Shown here in pieces: positions 3,640-55,215 of a stretch of DNA of 64,000 nucleotides. The notes beneath the pieces are model-generated. The model was given only the letters and a program-made list of their open reading frames with translations. It ran no database searches and had not been told where the DNA came from. The first letter of the stretch is position 1, and each line of letters starts with the position of its first letter. A program made the translations under genes and the position numbers. The DNA is taken from NCBI GenBank assembly GCA_963727505.1, contig CAVSGP010000004.1, forward strand, positions 96,001-160,000. Direction: 5' to 3'. Source of the stretch: an uncultured Trueperaceae bacterium (lineage in GTDB: Bacteria; Deinococcota; Deinococci; Deinococcales; Trueperaceae).

Positions 3640-4698
3640 TTATTGCCCGAAGAAGGGCGGTTTGACGACCGTGGCGGCCACGGTCTGTCCTCGGATCTCG
3701 ACCCCGACCTCCGTACCCTCCTGGGCCGCGTCCGCGTCCACCCAGGCGAAACCGATGCTCTCGCGCGTCAGCGGCGACAGCGTTCCCGAGGTGATGGTGC
3801 CGACGGGGGCGCCGCCGCGCAGCACACGGTAGCCCTGGCGCGGGATTCCGCGCTCCAGGAGCCGAAGGCCGACGAGTCGCCGGGGGCAGGGCCGGTCCCA
3901 CATCGCGTCCCTCCCGAAGAAGGGCTTGTCCTTGACGACCCACGAGAAGCCGCTGCAAAGCGGATTGGTGGTCGCGTCGAACTCGTGACCGTAGAGCGGG
4001 AACCCAGCTTCGAGCCGCAGCGTGTCGCGCGCGCCGAGCCCGCACGGGACAGCCCCGGCGTCAGCCAGCACGTCCCAGACGATGGGAGCGTCGGTGGGGT
4101 GACAGAACAGTTCGAAGCCGTCTTCGCCGGTATAGCCGGTGCGGCTGAGGCGCACCGGGCAGCCTGAGATGGTCACGAGCAGGGTGGCGTTCTTGCGCAG
4201 CTCGGTGAGGTCCGCGTCGACGACTTGACCGAGAAGAACCGCGCTACCGGGGCCCTGCAGCGCCATGAGCGCCCACGTGGCCGACTCGTCGACGACGTGG
4301 CAGTCGTAGCCCCGGTTGACCTCCCGCAGATGCGCGAGGACGGCGTCGACGTTGGAGGCGTTGGCGACGATGAAGTACTCCTGCTCCTTCTCGCGGTAGA
4401 GGTAGAGGTCGTCGATGAGGCCTCCGCGATCGTTGGGCAGCATCGTGTACTGACCCCGACCGAGCTTCAGGCGCGCCGGATCGTTCAGTGTCGCGAACTG
4501 TAGGAAGGCAGTGGCGCCGTCACCGACGACCCGCAGCTCACCCATGTGGCTGACGTCGAACAGGCCCACGTCCGAACGGACGGCGATGTGCTCCTGCTGG
4601 ATCCCGGTGGGGTAGTGCACCGGCATGCTCCAGCCGGCGAACTCCACCATCCGGGCTCCAAGGGCGACATGCGTGTCGTAGAGGGGGGTCCGCTTCAT
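3640..4698 (-). CDS. gcvT: Glycine cleavage system aminomethyltransferase T
   Basis: [40 protein letters not shown]; leaderless (TATCGT 8 nt upstream of ATG). Confidence 0.97.
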
Positions 4699-47464: not shown

Positions 47465-50400
47465 GTGCGCCTCACCTCCCTGTCGCTCCAGGGCTTCAAG
47501 AGCTTCGGGAATCGCGCGCTGGTCGAATTCGCTCCGGGCGTCACCGCCATCATCGGGCCCAACGGCTCGGGCAAGTCCAATCTGATCGACGCGTTGAAGT
47601 GGACCACCGGCGGCGGTCGCGCGCGGGAGTTCCGCGCCAGCGACAAGACCGACCTGATCTTCCACGGCGCCACGGGCAAGCGCGGCCTCAGCCTGGCGGA
47701 GGTCGAGGTGGAGCTTCGTGGCGACGGCCGGACCATCAAGGTCTACCGCAGCCTCGACCGCGACGGCACCACCCGCTTGCGGCTCAACGGTCGTAACGCC
47801 CGTTTCCTCGATCTCGAGGAAGCCCTGTCGGGCAGCGGGCTGGGCCGAGCGGGGGTCGCGCTCATCGGCCAGGGTGAGGTCAGCCAGGTGCTCATGGCGG
47901 ATCCGCCGAAGCTGCTGGAGTACGTCGCCGAAGTTGCCGGCGTGGGACGCATGAGCTCGCGTCGCGAGCAGACACAAGCCCGCCTGGAGACCGCGCGCGG
48001 CCACCTCGACCGGCTGCAGGACGTCCTGGTGGAGCTCGACGAGCGCTGCGTTCGCCTCGGAGAGGAGGCCGCCGACGCCGAGCGGCACGCCTCCCTGAGC
48101 GCCGAAGCGCTCCGTCTGCGCGTCACCGCCTCCCGCAGACGCGTGGACGCGCTGGAAGAGGAGATCGCGGGCCTGCAGGAGCGCCGTGCCGAGCTGACGG
48201 GAGCCATCCAGGAAGGACGCGAACGGCTTCAGGAGCTGCGTACCGAGCTCGAGAGCGCACGGCACACGCGCGACGTCAGGGAAGAGACCTACCGCAGCGC
48301 CCTGGCCGAAGCCGAACTCAAGCGCGGCGACCTTCGCGTGGCGGACGAGCGCGCGCAGCGCGCTGGCGAACGGTGGCAAGCGGCACAGGACGCCCTGGCG
48401 GCTGCGCACGAAGAGGCCCGCCGGCTAGAAGCGGGCGAGCCGCCGAGCGCTCCCGAAGGCGACCCAGCGCCGCTGGCCGAACGCGAGGCCTCGCTGAGCG
48501 AGGCGCTTCAAGGCTCCGATGCCGAGTTGGCCGAGGCGCGCGCCGCCCTCGAGGAGGCCGGCGGCGAGCTGGACCGGCTACGCGAGGCACAAGCGGCTGC
48601 CGAACGCAGTGCCGCCACCTTCGAAACGCAGCGTGCCGGACTCGAGAGCCAGGCACGCGAACTCCAGCAACGGCTGGATGCGCTCGTCGTAACGCCGCAG
48701 GAGGACCTGACGGCGCTCGAAGCCTCCGAGGCCGAGGCGCGCCGGCGCTCGGCGACGCTGGCCGCCGATCTGGAGACGGCACGCAAGCGCCTGGCCGAAG
48801 CGCATGAACGTCACGCCCACCTGGAGGCCGAACGGCAGGCGCTGGGTCGGGCGGCGCAGCGCCAGCGCGCAGCCTTCGAAGCACGGCGCGGGTACGCGCA
48901 GGGCCCCCGCAACGCCCTCACCTCGGGCATCGAAGGCGTCCTCGGCTCCGTCGGCGACCTACTCGACGTTCCGGAGCGCTTCCGCACGGCGGTGGCCGCC
49001 GCCCTCGGGCGGCGCGCCGAGTACGTCGTCGTCGATCATGCCGATACCGGGCGCAGGGTGCTGCGCTGGGTACGCGAGCACGGCGGCTTCGTCACGGTGC
49101 TCCCGCTCGACCTGCTACGCGACGACGGCCGCAGGCCCCCGCGCGAGCTGCTCGCTCAGGAAGGCGTCATCGGAGCCGCAGTCGACGTGGTGGAGGTCGA
49201 TGCGGCCTACCGTTCGGTCGCCGAGCAGCTCCTCGGCGGCACCGCACTGGTGGAGACGATGGAGCGGGCCACCGCGCTGGCGCGCGGGCGCGGGCCGCGC
49301 GCGCGGATGGTGGCACTCGACGGCGACATCCTGGAGGCGTCCGGAGCCATGAGCGGCGGGCGGCGTGGGCCGCAGTCGAGCGTGCTGGGCGCGGCTGCGG
49401 AGCTCGAGGAGGCCGAAGCGGCCGAGGAGCGTGCGAGCCGCCAGGCCGAGGTCGCCAGGGCGGAACTCGAGCGCGGGCAGCGGGACGTCCGGGAGCTGCA
49501 GGAGCGCCTGCCCGAGGCTGCTACGGCGCTGGAGGACGCGCGCACGCGCCTGGCAGAGGCGCGCGAGCGGGGCTCACGCCGGCAGGGGCTGCTCGAGGAC
49601 CTGCAGCAACGCGCCGTCGAGGTCGATCGCGCGCGCGACGCGCTGCAAGCGCCGCCCGATCCGCCGGACCCCCACCGGCTGGAGGCGGCCGCAGAAGCCG
49701 CCAGCAGCGCCGCCCAGAGCGTCGAAGACCTCCGCGACCGCGATGCCGAGCGCCGCCAGGAGCTGGCGGAGGTGCGGCAGCGTCGCCTGCTGCTGGAGGA
49801 GCGCCTGCGCTCGTACGCTTCGGCGCTCGAGCGCTTCCGGCAGGAGCGCTCCCGGGCTTCGGAGTTGCGCACCTCGATCGGTCGTCAGGAGCAGACGCTG
49901 GCGGACCTTCAGGAGGCGCTCGCCGCCGCGCAGGCCGCCCGGACAGAGGCCGAGGCGGCGCTGCCGACGGGGCTGGAGGAGGCGGAGGCTGCGCTGTCCG
50001 AGGTGCGCTCACAGAGCGACGCGTTCGAGGCGGCGTTGAACGAACTCACCGAGCACCAGGCAGGGCGCGGCCAGGAGCTCGAAGGGTGCAACGTTCAGCT
50101 CGCCCGCCGCGAGGCCGCACTCGAGCTCGCCGCCGAGGAGCTCCAGGGTTACCCCGAAGGCGCCGAGCCGCTCGAGCTGAGCGAGCGCGCCGCCAAGAGC
50201 AGGCTGCGTGAAGTCGAGACCGCCCTGGACGCGCTGGGCCCGGTCAACCACCGGGCGGCAAGAGACCTGCAGGAGTCCCGAGAGCGCAAGGAGGGACTCG
50301 AGGTCGAGGCGGTACAGGCCACGCTGGCCGTGACCGAACTGGAAGGCACGCTGGAGCGCATCGACCGCGAAACCACGGCGCGGCTGCACGCCGCGCTCGA

Positions 50401-50857
50401 ACGCCTCCGGGTCAGCTTCCGGGGACACGTCCAGCAGCTCTTCGGTGCCGAGGGTCAGGGCGACATCGACGTCGAGCATGACGAAGGCCGGCCGGTCGGC
50501 GTCCGCATCCGCCTGCAACCGCCCGGCAAGCAGACGCAATCGCTCCACCTGCTCTCGGTGGGGGAGCGAACCATGGGGGCGCTCGCTTTCCTGTTCGCGC
50601 TGATGGCCGACGGGAGCGACGGCGCGGGCCTCCCGATCGCCGTTCTGGACGAGGTCGACGCCCCGCTCGACGAGGCCAACATCCGGCGCTACTGTGCGTT
50701 CCTGGAGCGGCTCGCGAAGACCGGCACGCAGTTCGTGCTCATCACCCACCAGAAGGCGACCTTCGAGGTGGCCGACGTGTTGTGGGGGGTCACCACCGAG
50801 GACGGCGTGAGCCGGGTGTTCAGCATCCGTCGTGACGAAGTCGCTCCGGTAGGCTGA
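47465..50857 (+). CDS. smc: Chromosome segregation protein SMC
   Basis: GFKSF, GPNGSGKSN, coiled coils, hinge, LSVGE, LDEVDAPLD, ITH. Confidence 0.95.
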   Translation: MRLTSLSLQGFKSFGNRALVEFAPGVTAIIGPNGSGKSNLIDALKWTTGGGRAREFRASDKTDLIFHGATGKRGLSLAEVEVELRGDGRTIKVYRSLDRDGTTRLRLNGRNARFLDLEEALSGSGLGRAGVALIGQGEVSQVLMADPPKLLEYVAEVAGVGRMSSRREQTQARLETARGHLDRLQDVLVELDERCVRLGEEAADAERHASLSAEALRLRVTASRRRVDALEEEIAGLQERRAELTGAIQEGRERLQELRTELESARHTRDVREETYRSALAEAELKRGDLRVADERAQRAGERWQAAQDALAAAHEEARRLEAGEPPSAPEGDPAPLAEREASLSEALQGSDAELAEARAALEEAGGELDRLREAQAAAERSAATFETQRAGLESQARELQQRLDALVVTPQEDLTALEASEAEARRRSATLAADLETARKRLAEAHERHAHLEAERQALGRAAQRQRAAFEARRGYAQGPRNALTSGIEGVLGSVGDLLDVPERFRTAVAAALGRRAEYVVVDHADTGRRVLRWVREHGGFVTVLPLDLLRDDGRRPPRELLAQEGVIGAAVDVVEVDAAYRSVAEQLLGGTALVETMERATALARGRGPRARMVALDGDILEASGAMSGGRRGPQSSVLGAAAELEEAEAAEERASRQAEVARAELERGQRDVRELQERLPEAATALEDARTRLAEARERGSRRQGLLEDLQQRAVEVDRARDALQAPPDPPDPHRLEAAAEAASSAAQSVEDLRDRDAERRQELAEVRQRRLLLEERLRSYASALERFRQERSRASELRTSIGRQEQTLADLQEALAAAQAARTEAEAALPTGLEEAEAALSEVRSQSDAFEAALNELTEHQAGRGQELEGCNVQLARREAALELAAEELQGYPEGAEPLELSERAAKSRLREVETALDALGPVNHRAARDLQESRERKEGLEVEAVQATLAVTELEGTLERIDRETTARLHAALERLRVSFRGHVQQLFGAEGQGDIDVEHDEGRPVGVRIRLQPPGKQTQSLHLLSVGERTMGALAFLFALMADGSDGAGLPIAVLDEVDAPLDEANIRRYCAFLERLAKTGTQFVLITHQKATFEVADVLWGVTTEDGVSRVFSIRRDEVAPVG

Positions 50858-50862
50858 GAAGC

Positions 50863-51585
50863 ATGCCGCTCGCGATCGCGTTCCGCATCGAGGCGCACGC
50901 CTCGCTCCCGTCGACGCAGAGCGACGCCCGCCGGCGCCTGGAGGGCGGCGAGGACGTCGACGGCCTGGTGGTGCGCGCAGCTCGTCAGACGCAGGGGAGA
51001 GGACGGCGAGGCCAGTCTTGGGAGAGCGCCCCGGGGGGCAGCTACCAGACGCTGATCGTGCGCGACCCGGCACCGCCGTCGCTGGGCCGGGGCGGCGCCG
51101 CCGTCGCGGTGGCGGTCGGGATGGCGGAGTCCCTGTCCGAGGTCGGTGTCCGGGTCGCCCTCAAGTGGCCGAACGACCTGTTCTACCGGGGGCGGAAGCT
51201 CGGAGGCATCCTGACCGAGTACCTGCGCGGTCATCTGCTGGTGGGGGTGGGCGTCAACGTGGGCAACGAACCGCCTCCGGGCGGCGTAGCGCTGCGCGGC
51301 TGGGACCTGGAGGGCGTGCACGGCGCCGTGCTGGCCGGCATGCAGCGCGGTCTGGACGCCTGGGTGGACGACGTCGCGTCGATCCCCGAGCGATTCCGGG
51401 CGTTCGACGCTCTGGAGGGACGCCCGCTGCGCATCGAGACCGGCGGGCGCGTCCTCGAGGGCGTCGGCTGCGGCGTCGACGGGCACGGCTGCCTGCTACT
51501 CGAGGTCGAGGGCACGTTGCCCGGCGGCGACGCGCAGGCAGTGTGCTCGGGGAGCGTCCTGTTGGATGCGGGCCGGCTCCCCTGA
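50863..51585 (+). CDS. birA: Biotin--protein ligase (group I, no HTH)
   Basis: QTQGRGRRG, LKWPND, RKLGGIL, GVGVNV. Confidence 0.92.
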   Translation: MPLAIAFRIEAHASLPSTQSDARRRLEGGEDVDGLVVRAARQTQGRGRRGQSWESAPGGSYQTLIVRDPAPPSLGRGGAAVAVAVGMAESLSEVGVRVALKWPNDLFYRGRKLGGILTEYLRGHLLVGVGVNVGNEPPPGGVALRGWDLEGVHGAVLAGMQRGLDAWVDDVASIPERFRAFDALEGRPLRIETGGRVLEGVGCGVDGHGCLLLEVEGTLPGGDAQAVCSGSVLLDAGRLP

Positions 51586-51718
51586 GCGAACCGCCGCCGC
51601 CCAGCGGCAGGCGGGCTCGACGACCGCCCGCAACTCAGACCCGTTTCAGCTGGACCTCATCCGTGTGCGACGCATGTTCTCGCCCCGTCGTGCCACCGTG
51701 AACGTGGAGGTGAGGCGC

Positions 51719-52210
51719 ATGACCCGTCCCCGTTCGCTCCCCCGTATGGCGCGCACCACGGTCCGCAGGCTGGCGCTCCTGGCGCTCCTGGCGGTGCTGG
51801 CGCTCGCAGCGACCGCCGCCGCCCAGGCCACCCCTCTGAAGGTGTTCAGCGCGAACCTCAGCCCGAACAACGTCGTCCCGCCGGTCCACACGGGCGCCAG
51901 CGGCTTCGCGGTGGCCGTGCTGAACGGTCACCGGCTCGACGTCCTGGGGTCGTTCCTGGCCCTCTCCAGCCCGGTCGCCACCGAGCTGCGCGGCGGCGCC
52001 CACATCCATCAGGGCGGGCCGAACGACAACGGCCCGATCCTCTACGGCCTGAGCGTCGACGGGACCGTCGCAGGCAGCATCCGCGGCATCTTCGATCTCA
52101 CCGACGCGCAGGTGAAGGCGCTGGAGGCCGGTGACCTCTACGTGCAGATCCACTCCGAGCTGCACAAGCCCGGGGAGATGCGCGCCCAGCTCAAGCCCTT
52201 CAAGCCGTGA
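51719..52210 (+). CDS. Secreted CHRD domain protein
   Basis: Signal peptide, VVPPV, AHIHQG, LYVQIHS, PGEMRAQL. Confidence 0.85.
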   Translation: MTRPRSLPRMARTTVRRLALLALLAVLALAATAAAQATPLKVFSANLSPNNVVPPVHTGASGFAVAVLNGHRLDVLGSFLALSSPVATELRGGAHIHQGGPNDNGPILYGLSVDGTVAGSIRGIFDLTDAQVKALEAGDLYVQIHSELHKPGEMRAQLKPFKP

Positions 52211-52219
52211 CGGCAGGCG

Positions 52220-52260
52220 GCGGTGGGGGGCCGCTCGGGATCTCGCGCGACCCCCACCGC
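52220..52260. terminator. Hairpin between convergent CHRD and recombinase genes
   Basis: GCGGTGGGGG...CCCCCACCGC inverted repeat. Confidence 0.55.
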
Positions 52261-52276
52261 CGCTCTCCCGGAGCCT

Positions 52277-53266
52277 TCACCAGTCGTCGATGTCCTCGCC
52301 GATCGCGTCCTGGTCGATCTTGGCGTAGATCCTGGTGGTCTGGATGTCGGCGTGCCGCAGGTGCGCCGCCACCCGGCCGAGGTCGTGGGTCTGCCGGTAG
52401 TAGCGCGTACCGGCCCCGTGGCGCAGGCCGTGCACGCCGGCCGAGGCGTAGTCGACGCCCGCGCGCTGGCACAGGGTGCGGAAGCGCTTACGGGTGTGAT
52501 CGGTGCCCCAGGGCAAGACCCACTCCGGGTCACGCTGGCGGCGCGCCGTAGCCCCGTCCGCCCGGAGTGCCTCGAGAGCCGCGCGCAGGCGGCGCGTCAT
52601 GCTCACGCGGGCGCTCTTGCCGCCCTTGCCGGACTCCACCCTGAGCTCGTTGCGAGCCAGGTCGAGATCACGCCAGCGCAGCGCCGTCATCTCGCTGATG
52701 CGCAACCCGGCGTGCGCGCCCAGCAGCACCACGACGCGTTCGGCTGGCTGGGCCAGGTCGAGAAGCCGTTCCACCTCCTTATCGCCGTAGGGGCGGCGCT
52801 TCTCCCACGGCGGCGTCGGGTCCTTGGCGATCCGTACGTTCTCGAACGGCCGTGCCTCCGTCGCGCCCGCCCAGCGCAGCGCCCGGTAGAGCGTGCGTGC
52901 CGCCGCCAGCTTCACCTGCAGCGTCGAGGGCTGCGGCCGCTCGCCCGAGGCCGCGCCGGGCGTGGACTCCAGTCGGCGGATGTAGAGCACGCCGGCGTCA
53001 CGGGTGGGCCGGAGCAGGTTCTCGTCCTGCCAGCCCTCGAGCAGGTCCGCGATGCCGCGCCGGTAGGTGCGGAGCGTATGACGGCTGGCGCGCGAGCCCT
53101 TGGAGCCGTGCAGGAACAGGTAGGCTTCGGTGAGCGCCCACAGCTCGCCCACATCGCGGGCATTGGCGGCACGCGCGGCCCGTCGCCGGAGCTCGTCGGT
53201 CGGCAGCGAGGCCCAGCCCTCGGCGCGGCTGAGCGCGTCGCCCTGGTAGCGTTGGAGGTCGCTCAC
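52277..53266 (-). CDS. Tyrosine recombinase (Xer-like, stand-alone)
   Basis: AGLRISE (R), GKGGK (K), HGLRH (HxxR), HLRH, TTRIY (Y); start GTG 53266 or 53311. Confidence 0.93.
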   Translation of the reverse strand: MSDLQRYQGDALSRAEGWASLPTDELRRRAARAANARDVGELWALTEAYLFLHGSKGSRASRHTLRTYRRGIADLLEGWQDENLLRPTRDAGVLYIRRLESTPGAASGERPQPSTLQVKLAAARTLYRALRWAGATEARPFENVRIAKDPTPPWEKRRPYGDKEVERLLDLAQPAERVVVLLGAHAGLRISEMTALRWRDLDLARNELRVESGKGGKSARVSMTRRLRAALEALRADGATARRQRDPEWVLPWGTDHTRKRFRTLCQRAGVDYASAGVHGLRHGAGTRYYRQTHDLGRVAAHLRHADIQTTRIYAKIDQDAIGEDIDDW

Positions 53267-53334
53267 GGCGCCACCGGACGGGCGTACAGGCGGTTTCTTG
53301 GGTTCGAGCACCCCTTCATGTCGGCATCATAGCG

Positions 53335-53362
53335 AGACCTGATAAGACGAGTTATCAGGTTT
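53335..53362. other. dif-like recombination site (11-6-11)
   Basis: AGACCTGATAA-GACGAG-TTATCAGGTTT, arms 10/11 inverted, ATAA/TTAT flanking a 6-bp spacer. Confidence 0.72.
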
Positions 53363-54126
53363 TTTACAGTTTCGAGCACGGCCGGAATGCCCTCGACCGG
53401 CTCGGCCGTCGTGCGTCGCTATGCTTCGTCGCCCCGTGTCGCATGACGCCCGGGCGCGGCCGACCAGCCACCGGCCCGGCGGGACCGCGGGCTCCGGCCG
53501 TGGCTCTCGCCTCCGGGCGCGCCGGCGAGCGGGCGCCCGCAACGCGTCGCGCTCCCGGCCCCGGCGCCCGGCTACGACCGGCGCCGCCCGGCACCGCGCC
53601 GCCGCCGACGGAGCGGCCGTCCGCCGGCGACCGCCCACGCATGCGTCCAGCCCACATCCGCCCACGGCTGCCGACGTCCGGTCCGCGCCGGCGCGCTCCC
53701 CGGTACCACCACCCTCTGGCTGCGGTCCACCTCGAGCCGGTCCCCCACGATCTCCTCGAACCCGCCGCGGACCGCCGCGTGGCGATGGTCCCCCAGGTCG
53801 CCCGTCCAGACGCACGGTCCCCGCCTCCGCCGGCGGCCACGCGCCTTCACCGGCGTGGCGATGCCCGCCGTACGTCCCTGACGCGAAGGGCGCCACGCGC
53901 ATCGTGCCAGCGGACGCGGCATCATGGTTGGTCCCGACCGGTCTAGCTGCACGTCGACACCTTCGCTAGAACGGTCTACCTTTCACGATGCGAGGGCCCT
54001 GCGCGCGGCGCGGCGGCGCTCCGACTTCGGGGGGACGGCGTGAAGCTGCGTCGGTCGTCCGTGGCGGTGGAAGCACGTCCCATCGATTTGATAATTCCCG
54101 AGCGGGCACGGACCCCTTCTTGCCGC

Positions 54127-55215
54127 TCAGGCACCGACGTGCTGACGCTTCGAAGCGAGATGCGCCACGACGTAGGCGGCGTCGCGGCCGACGCCCCCGA
54201 GCAACACCGAGCTCAGCGAGTGGAGGAACGGCAATCCCAGGAAGTAGAGTCCTGGACAGTACACCACCACGCCGCGCCGTGCGATGGGCAGGCCGGCCCG
54301 ATACCGCACCGGGAGCTCGATCCAGTCGTGCCGCAGGTGGTAGCCCGTGCACCACACGACGTTCGCGACATTGAGGACCGTACCGTCGGTCAGGACAGGG
54401 CGGCCGCCTTGCACGCCGGCCACGCGCGGAACCCTCCGGATGCCCGCGGCGGCGAAGTCCGCCCGCCGGACCCGGCCGAGCGGGACGCCTCGAGGCGGGT
54501 CCAGGAAGACGTCGCGGACCTTGCGGCCGATGGGCGTGCCCACCGTGAGGACGCGCGTGGCTGCGAACCAGAAGATCGGTGCGACCAGGCGGTGGCCGGG
54601 CGTCCCCGCCGCCGCGGGCTCCTGTCCCGTGTCCCGCCCCGACAGCGCCACCCGGTGGGTCCGCGCCAGCTCGACCGCGATCTCCGCGCCGGAGTTGCCC
54701 GCGCCCACGACCAGCACGTCGCCCCGCTGCAGCTGCGAGGGATTGCGGTAGGCCTTGGAGTGGAGCTGGACGATGCCCTCGTCCAGCTCGCCCGCGAACG
54801 GCGGGACCTTGGGCACGTGATAGGCCCCGGCGGCCACCACGACGTGGTCCGCCAGCCACCGTCCCCCGCCGTGCAGCACCTCGAAGCGCCCCTGCGCCGC
54901 GCGCAGCCGCTCGACCCGGACCCCGGTGCGCACGGGCAGGTCGAACGCACGCGCGTACGCCTCCAGGAACGCCGCAACCTCGTCCTTGCTCGGGTAGCTC
55001 CAACCCGCGGCGGGGAACCGCTTGCCGGGCAGCGCGTCGTAACGCGCGGGCGTGAACAGCCTGAGCGAGTCCCAGCGCTTGCGCCAGCTGTCGCCGACCC
55101 GTTCGTGGGCGTCCAGGATGACGAAGGGCAGCCCGCGACGCTTGAGGTGGTACCCCGCGGCCAGCCCGGCCTGTCCCCCGCCGATGACGACGGTCTCGAC
55201 GCGCTCGTCGCTCAC
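54127..55215 (-). CDS. Flavin-containing monooxygenase-like FAD/NAD(P) oxidoreductase
   Basis: VIGGGQAG, WDSLRLFTP, LHSKAYRNP, VVGAGNSG, VWCTGY. Confidence 0.9.
   Translation of the reverse strand: MSDERVETVVIGGGQAGLAAGYHLKRRGLPFVILDAHERVGDSWRKRWDSLRLFTPARYDALPGKRFPAAGWSYPSKDEVAAFLEAYARAFDLPVRTGVRVERLRAAQGRFEVLHGGGRWLADHVVVAAGAYHVPKVPPFAGELDEGIVQLHSKAYRNPSQLQRGDVLVVGAGNSGAEIAVELARTHRVALSGRDTGQEPAAAGTPGHRLVAPIFWFAATRVLTVGTPIGRKVRDVFLDPPRGVPLGRVRRADFAAAGIRRVPRVAGVQGGRPVLTDGTVLNVANVVWCTGYHLRHDWIELPVRYRAGLPIARRGVVVYCPGLYFLGLPFLHSLSSVLLGGVGRDAAYVVAHLASKRQHVGA

Follow-up and report, generated by a model that had tools for sequence, protein, structure and literature searches.

Why does a nearly perfect 28-base palindrome lie directly upstream of a tyrosine recombinase gene in the genome of an uncultured Trueperaceae bacterium? 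The question is raised by a stretch of 64,000 nucleotides, hereafter called the window, which spans positions 96,001-160,000 of contig C4 (1,078,597 bp) of a Trueperaceae-type genome, G000 (3,261,185 bp in 15 contigs, ~70% guanine-cytosine (GC) content, 97.4% complete). The palindrome, AGACCTGATAAGACGAGTTATCAGGTTT, is read directly from the sequence at window positions 53335-53362. The analysis reported here indicates that this site and the adjacent gene very likely constitute the chromosomal dif and its cognate single Xer-type tyrosine recombinase. The palindrome is found where the two replichores finish replicating, and is therefore very probably the site at which joined sister chromosomes are separated. 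A preliminary description of this DNA had proposed a chromosome dimer resolution locus served by one recombinase; the proposal is supported, and every computable refutation test named beforehand came out in its favour.

The site consists of an 11-bp arm, AGACCTGATAA (53335-53345), the 6-bp centre GACGAG (53346-53351) and a second 11-bp arm, TTATCAGGTTT (53352-53362). The arms, which carry the inner motif ATAA/TTAT, are complementary at 10 of 11 positions, and re-reading reproduced exactly the sequence and coordinates first reported. Core sites of the Xer/dif class feature two inverted arms of about 11 bp and a centre of 6-11 bp, and the 11-6-11 layout of the palindrome conforms to this anatomy. 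In G000, 311 palindromes have the 11-6-11 layout and 10 or more of 11 pairs, and the palindrome by itself is therefore unremarkable. Its ATAA-N6-TTAT version is found in the 3.26 Mb of G000 at the window site only, even when palindromes with at least 8 of 11 pairs are allowed, and the pattern CTGATAA-N6-TTATCAG has one match in the genome, in keeping with the single-copy state of sites of this class. Conservation and position, which are described below, raise the site far above chance. Another 11-6-11 palindrome that is very rich in A and T (21 of 28 bases, 10 of 11 pairs) was noted at G000:C1:50651-50678, on a 58-kb contig from which a tyrosine recombinase is absent.

Orthologs of the recombinase were sought in 40 relatives and were identified in all nine same-genus genomes (83-92% identity) and in four other genera (70-77% identity). 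The preliminary description had called for a search for the motif beside orthologous genes, and the site is indeed present at the same place in 14 of 14 orthologous loci with at least 70% identity. Alignment of 19 genomes, in which the flanks comprised 20 bases beyond the gene-distal end and the gene side, gave a mean column identity of 0.91 for the site, 0.44 for the gene-distal flank and 0.55 for the gene-side flank; the only conspicuous conserved features of the latter are a TAnnnT hexamer and an ATG. The block conserved in the relatives (53338-53368, minus strand) reads TGTAAAAAACCTGATAACTCGTCTTATCAGG in gene orientation. Conservation is lopsided, as the gene-distal arm runs on into a conserved A-tract and the gene-proximal arm is variable in its outermost three bases. 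The central six bases are conserved as strongly as the arms (CTCGTC in gene orientation, with CTAGTC, CTAGCC, CTCATC and CTCGTG as variants). Symmetry is preserved where an arm varies: at locus L013, the change from CCTG...CAGG to TCTG...CAGA is mirrored in the two arms.

Among 53 other genomes of the family, 19 gave a match to the CTGATAA-N6-TTATCAG pattern; none of 147 genomes of four sister families did. With G000 included, the pattern is carried by 20 genomes, four of which feature two matches. The two matches in G017 are two contig ends, identical over the 41 bases common to both. The matches at L032, L034, L035 and L036 were rejected as dif; they have different central regions, lack the A-tract and have no xer gene within ±1.5 kb. 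Assemblies break at the site at G017:C9:26-45, G017:C12:11-30 and G195:C187:27-46. Such breaks would be consistent with DNA that varies between strains on the side of dif that lacks synteny, or with the integration of elements at that place.

The position of the site in the chromosome was assessed by both base composition and polar motifs. The cumulative GC skew of C4 peaks in the 10-kb bin at 140,001-150,000, which includes the site (149,335), and the skew is strongly negative to the right of it. An unbiased k-mer search trained on 2.8 Mb of G000, from which C4:1-200,000 was excluded, returned GGGGGAG as the most strand-skewed heptamer (434 copies on the leading and 141 on the lagging strand, 75.5%). 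In the held-out part of C4, GGGGGAG occurs 33 times on the plus and 10 times on the minus strand to the left of the site, and 12 times on the minus and 4 times on the plus strand from the site to 200 kb. The maximum-likelihood switch in motif orientation lies at 147,000-147,500, with a 95% interval of 134-157 kb (23 kb of 3.26 Mb); at the site itself, the log-likelihood is lower than at the maximum by 1.1 units. The switch in skew and polar motif at the site, which had been put forward as a check, was thereby borne out on this contig. [quoted passage not shown] Of the early counts of GGGNAGGG in the window, those of three copies pointing away on the left, and of three pointing toward and none away on the right, stand; the copies pointing toward the site on the left are 12 and not 11, the one at 3884 having been missed.

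The same location was found in relatives. In G020, a single-contig genome of 2,919,400 bp from another genus, whose protein is 70% identical, the site maps to 1,309,822, at 50.7% of the circle from dnaA, the gene that serves as a stand-in for the origin in all circle-distance figures. The 10-kb GC skew of G020 changes from +0.046 to -0.038 at 1,310,000, and GGGGGAG is found in 34 plus and 3 minus copies to the left and in 31 minus and 8 plus copies to the right of the site. The module of recombinase and palindrome lies at 50.1% of the circle from dnaA in G026, 53.1% in G030, 50.9% in G033:C4, 50.4% in G130, 49.4% in G143:C1 and 51.0% in G212:C1, the contigs of G033, G143 and G212, each the largest of a multi-contig assembly, being taken as complete circles. 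Thus, in seven of seven large contigs from three families of the order, the module is located 49.4-53.1% of the circle from dnaA. A terminal location, as in other Xer/dif systems, is observed in G000, in G020 and in all of the large contigs of relatives, and a site far from the terminus, which at the outset was named as a ground for refutation, is not what was found.

Outside Trueperaceae, the sequence of the site changes and the arrangement is retained. The surroundings of homologs were searched for 11-6-11 palindromes with 9 or more of 11 pairs and 10 or more A/T bases. In three other families of the order, homologs with 33-48% identity are accompanied by AT-rich palindromes of their own, such as TCCGATGATAACATGCATTATCAACGGA in G033:C4 and ATTCCCGTTAATATCCCTTAACAGGAAT in G026. 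These are placed just upstream of, or overlap, the start codon; one is located 914 nt upstream. In G026, in which the site is at 1,149,667, GGGGGAG occurs 33 times on the plus and 8 times on the minus strand up to 1,149 kb, and 26 times on the minus and twice on the plus strand from 1,152 kb. In G033:C4, the motif is on the plus strand up to 49 kb and on the minus strand from 56 kb, and the site is at 55,162. The GC skew of G033:C4:1-160000 changes from negative to positive across the site, a sign opposite to that of G000, G020 and G026, and GGGGGAG still converges. A close ortholog of the G033 protein was found in 18 of 41 genomes of the large, multi-replicon genus g17, and was lacking in the other 23. 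All 18 orthologs are accompanied by CCGTTGATAA-KGCATG-TTATCATCGG or slight variants of it, set in flanks that are unrelated to one another, and the g17 sites are on the main chromosome, opposite dnaA. No palindrome was detected near homologs L015, L018, L020, L021, L023, L029, L030, L071, L072 and L075, next to the gene at L017, or upstream of the g17 homologs of ~50% identity (L130-L141), and neither of the two genomes of genus g19 has a match to protein P0001 at E ≤1e-10. The module is thus documented for some homologs and species and not for all.

The recombinase gene is on the minus strand. Its longest open reading frame (ORF) spans 52277-53311 and encodes 344 amino acids, but the true start is probably the GTG at 53266, behind a short upstream ORF, since the resulting 329-residue protein (52277-53266) has the length of public gene calls (P0004). 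The protein matches Phage_integrase (PF00589, 1.9e-24) and Phage_int_SAM_1 (PF02899). The PF00589 score of 86.8 bits, against a cut-off of 27.1, assigns it to the tyrosine recombinase superfamily. The R, K, HxxR, H and Y residues (GLR, GKGGK, HGLRH, LRH, IY) align to the catalytic positions of XerA 5hxy, so the recombinase is predicted to be catalytically intact, as first claimed. The closest solved structures are the XerA proteins 5hxy (2.1e-11) and 4a8e (2e-10), and the best-scoring curated model is the NCBIfam XerA model NF040815 (82.4 bits vs a cut-off of 220). Scores are also far below the cut-offs of XerC (TIGR02224, 79 vs 335.15 bits), XerD (TIGR02225, 57 vs 329.6 bits) and XerS (NF003462, 49.3 vs 267 bits). 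There is no XerH model among the NCBIfam matches and no XerH chain among the five PDB matches at E ≤1e-5. Public annotations name the proteins of relatives "integrase/recombinase XerC" (Joint Genome Institute) and "tyrosine-type recombinase/integrase" or "site-specific integrase" (NCBI). Relatives of 453-468 amino acids and ~54% identity (P0115-P0123) carry Sigma70_r4 (PF04545) in addition to PF00589.

A second Xer protein is absent from the assembled genome. PF00589 matches were found at two places only in the whole of G000, and no genome-wide match reaches the XerD cut-off; neither a canonical XerC nor a canonical XerD was found in G000, in agreement with the initial premise of a single recombinase. 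The other match is a 377-residue integrase of phage type with Phage_int_SAM_3, encoded outside the window at G000:C4:474001-479000 (L111). It adjoins a transfer RNA (tRNA) gene, tRNA-Leu(CAG), at the edge of an island of 56-64% GC, a region that probably represents a genomic island or the remnant of a prophage. With its phage-type architecture and its place beside tRNA-Leu(CAG) and the island, this integrase was rejected as a Xer partner. An FtsK gamma domain is encoded at G000:C14:101756-101935 (86.7 bits).

The genes around the site are housekeeping genes, encoding SMC, a lipoate-protein ligase, a CHRD protein, a flavin adenine dinucleotide (FAD) oxidoreductase and MgtE. Neither a mobile element nor a second site is apparent, as had been stated at first: the neighbours are housekeeping genes, and no second copy of the site, tRNA gene or island is nearby. 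The window has four tRNA genes, at 7-8 kb and at 35.5 kb; all are distant from the site, and a tRNA was thus rejected as an integration target. The CHRD/ligase side, on the 3' side of xer, is syntenic in the same-genus genomes, in G019 and in G011. DNA beyond the site is not syntenic, as would be expected where two replichores meet. Some 760 bp of very GC-rich DNA (53363-54126), which separate the site from the oxidoreductase gene, are unconserved in relatives and gave no Pfam and no Rfam match. In the Rfam search of 52000-54500, a single match far below the gathering score (E 0.77, a mammalian long non-coding RNA family) was taken as chance. The SMC gene (47465-50857, plus strand; SMC_N and hinge, 1130 amino acids) is located ~1.4 kb past the 3' end of xer, and is hence also terminal. 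XerD has been reported to unload SMC at the terminus in B. subtilis, in a study cited in the available text of PMC13342612; the proximity of SMC and xer may be a coincidence.

The interval between the site and the gene contains putative expression signals. A -10-like hexamer, TATGAT, lies on the minus strand at 53326-53331; TTATCAGG precedes it by 8 nt and a conserved ATG follows it by 6 nt, a spacing fixed in most relatives. Reading confirmed the placement of this hexamer (53331-53326) at 3 bp from the site. TAnnnT is present at the same position in most relatives, with L013 and L041 as exceptions, and the ATG follows it by 6-7 nt in most of them. The spacing of hexamer and ATG suggests a leaderless transcript driven by a putative promoter; leaderless mRNAs are common in Deinococcota. 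In G000, the ATG (53319) opens the short upstream ORF (18 codons, 53263-53319, minus strand), the TGA stop of which overlaps the GTG start of the recombinase (GTGA). At L001-L011 (11 of 11 loci, two genera), the ATG lies out of frame, 20 nt downstream of TTATCA. The ORF that starts from it has 18-51 codons and in every case terminates in (A/G)TGA, where its stop and the start of the recombinase overlap; the encoded peptide is poorly conserved. At L012-L014, from three other genera, the ATG is at +21, is in frame and is the xer start. A consensus scan of 51500-54500 for sigma-70 promoters returned none, and the early claim that the site covers the -35 region was not borne out.

Taken together, these features suggest how the module may work. 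Two recombinase monomers would bind the nearly identical arms of the 28-bp site, and the synapsis of two sister dif sites would give rise to a tetramer. Cleavage and strand exchange, in pairs and at either edge of the 6-bp centre, would then proceed via a Holliday junction and resolve a chromosome dimer into monomers. The G-rich GGGGGAG motifs converge on the site, and FtsK probably draws the sites together and licenses the reaction at the septum. The bound recombinase, placed against the -10 element of its own apparently leaderless transcript, would probably repress its own gene; self-repression is plausible because the bound protein would sit against that element.

Several observations weigh against this assignment, and two of them, a terminator-like fold and a paralog of the recombinase, are best considered together with the rival explanations that they favour. 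The GC skew to the left of the site in C4 is close to zero rather than clearly positive, and the best-fit GGGGGAG switch lies ~2 kb to the left of the site. The circle distances depend on dnaA as a stand-in for the origin and, in G033, G143 and G212, on contigs treated as circles. The recombinase falls under every curated Xer equivalog cut-off in NCBIfam. Since G000 is fragmented into 15 contigs and 97.4% complete, a second recombinase could be missing from the assembly. Furthermore, matches to the site pattern that lack an adjacent recombinase occur in other genomes; the one in G157 is located at only 19% of the circle from dnaA and was likewise rejected as dif.

The palindrome might be only an operator for the xer promoter, bound by the recombinase or by another dimeric regulator, with the true dif elsewhere or nonexistent. 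The site does abut the -10-like element and the conserved leaderless ATG, the g17 version features a TATCAT hexamer within an arm, and conservation alone cannot separate an operator from a recombination site. An operator, however, needs no terminus location, yet the module lies within 3.1% of the dnaA antipode in seven of seven large contigs, and the site coincides with the polar-motif switch in G000, G020, G026 and G033. As the 6-bp centre is also conserved as strongly as the arms and G000 contains no other dif-like site, we consider an operator unlikely. It is very doubtful that the palindrome acts as a Rho-independent terminator, insulating the xer region and placed beside the gene only incidentally. 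The plus-strand RNA of the site folds into a hairpin of -14.4 kcal/mol (z = -3.67) followed by UUUUUU, and the T-run, which corresponds to the A-tract when read in gene orientation, is conserved within the family. A consensus scan of 51500-54500 called no terminator, although it probably missed this hairpin, in which G-U pairing extends the stem into the T-run. A plus-strand transcript would moreover have to traverse ~1.1 kb antisense to xer before reaching the hairpin. Unlike terminators, the element is conserved across genera in loop and stem sequence amid randomised flanks; the g17 palindromes have no conserved T-run in the adjacent bases shown, and the terminus position would be left unexplained.

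The two remaining alternatives concern the recombinase. The site could be a dif used by two recombinases, as in XerCD, the partner being a paralog of 47-52% identity that is missing by chance from the G000 assembly. This paralog is present in seven of nine same-genus genomes and in G017, a member of another genus (loci L149-L156, in G002, G008, G005, G007, G006, G017, G009 and G001, respectively), and the arms of the site differ in the reach of their conservation, with the A-tract on one side and variable outer bases on the other. A chance loss from G000 is compatible with the completeness of its assembly, but the paralog is absent also from G003 (97% complete, like G000) and from G004 (81% complete), and hence seems dispensable. 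Furthermore, the two arms match each other exactly as inverted repeats over their inner 8 bp, and the paralog has a conserved upstream motif of its own, CATTTGATAA (ATTTGATAA in G017), which is non-palindromic and differs from the dif-like site. In seven of eight paralog loci, this motif is followed by a variable spacer, TTCACA and a TACACT or TAGACT hexamer. A two-recombinase dif is, on this evidence, distinctly improbable. Hardly any credence can be given to the idea of a mobile element whose integrase is this recombinase and whose attachment site is the palindrome, an idea prompted by the Pfam name "Phage integrase" and by the NCBI label "site-specific integrase" in relatives. Against it, the surroundings hold no second site, tRNA or island, the gene is found in nine of nine same-genus genomes with synteny conserved on its 3' side, the module is single-copy and terminal in several families, and the real island integrase of the genome is encoded elsewhere.

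The assignment of the locus as a dif with its single Xer recombinase can be extended to the order, at a level of confidence evenly poised between acceptance and doubt. The module may represent an ancestral single-recombinase Xer/dif cassette with lineage-specific arms, in which GGGGGAG orients FtsK and the supply of recombinase is tied to the occupancy of dif, because dif overlaps the xer promoter. The ancestral layout would comprise a palindromic dif, followed by the promoter and leaderless start, and then xer. If this extension is true, Deinococcota would gain its first dif and KOPS-like landmarks that can be put to use.

A literature search returned no paper defining such a dif site in Deinococcota, and papers beyond the searched literature could exist. 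The main text and two supplementary files of Kono 2011 (PMC3025954) make no mention of Deinococcus, Thermus, Truepera or Meiothermus, and Deinococcus and Thermus do not occur in the main texts of a 2017 review of Xer recombination (PMC5357621) and of a 2021 classification of tyrosine recombinases. According to the accessible portions of the two reports, a study of FtsK in D. radiodurans relied on the dif, KOPS and XerCD of E. coli as substitutes (PMC9764985), and a 2026 paper states that neither polarised KOPS nor a canonical dif is identifiable in D. radiodurans (PMC13342612). A defined dif and polar motif provide an exact landmark of the terminus. They also open chromosome dimer resolution to direct tests in organisms that are noted for polyploidy and for extensive repair by recombination. 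In addition, the locus offers a compact recombination module of one protein and one site from thermotolerant, high-GC hosts.

The module belongs to a known mechanistic kind, that of XerS/difSL, XerH/difH and XerA/dif, of which it is a separate lineage, new for the phylum. Single-recombinase Xer/dif modules are established in streptococci and lactococci, in epsilon-proteobacteria and in archaea. The Trueperaceae module shares with XerH/difH a single recombinase and a near-palindromic site, and xerH adjoins difH in epsilon-proteobacteria. With archaeal XerA/dif it has in common the use of a single recombinase, and XerA provides both the best curated model and the best solved structure for the Trueperaceae protein; the archaeal XerA dif site is likewise a 28-bp, 11-6-11 sequence. 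In contrast to the archaeal system, the Trueperaceae host is bacterial, possesses an FtsK with a gamma domain and has its recombinase gene adjoining the site, and the score of the protein is far under the equivalog cut-off. XerS/difSL resembles the module in its terminal location and in that, as outlined in the review text consulted (PMC5357621), one recombinase acts alone and the gene is immediately beside the site. As given there, difSL is 31 bp long with an 11-bp centre, whereas the Trueperaceae site, from a different phylum, is 28 bp long with a 6-bp centre. Features shared with XerCD/dif include the 28-bp, 11-6-11 format, the inner ATAA/TTAT and the location at the shift point of GC skew (Kono 2011, PMC3025954, in the sections available), as well as converging polar motifs and FtsK (for KOPS, PMC9764985, likewise in part). 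XerCD/dif differs in employing two recombinases and asymmetric arms, whereas the Trueperaceae module features one recombinase and near-symmetric arms, and the polar motif of the XerCD system, GGGNAGGG, is only 63% skewed in G000, compared with 75.5% for GGGGGAG.

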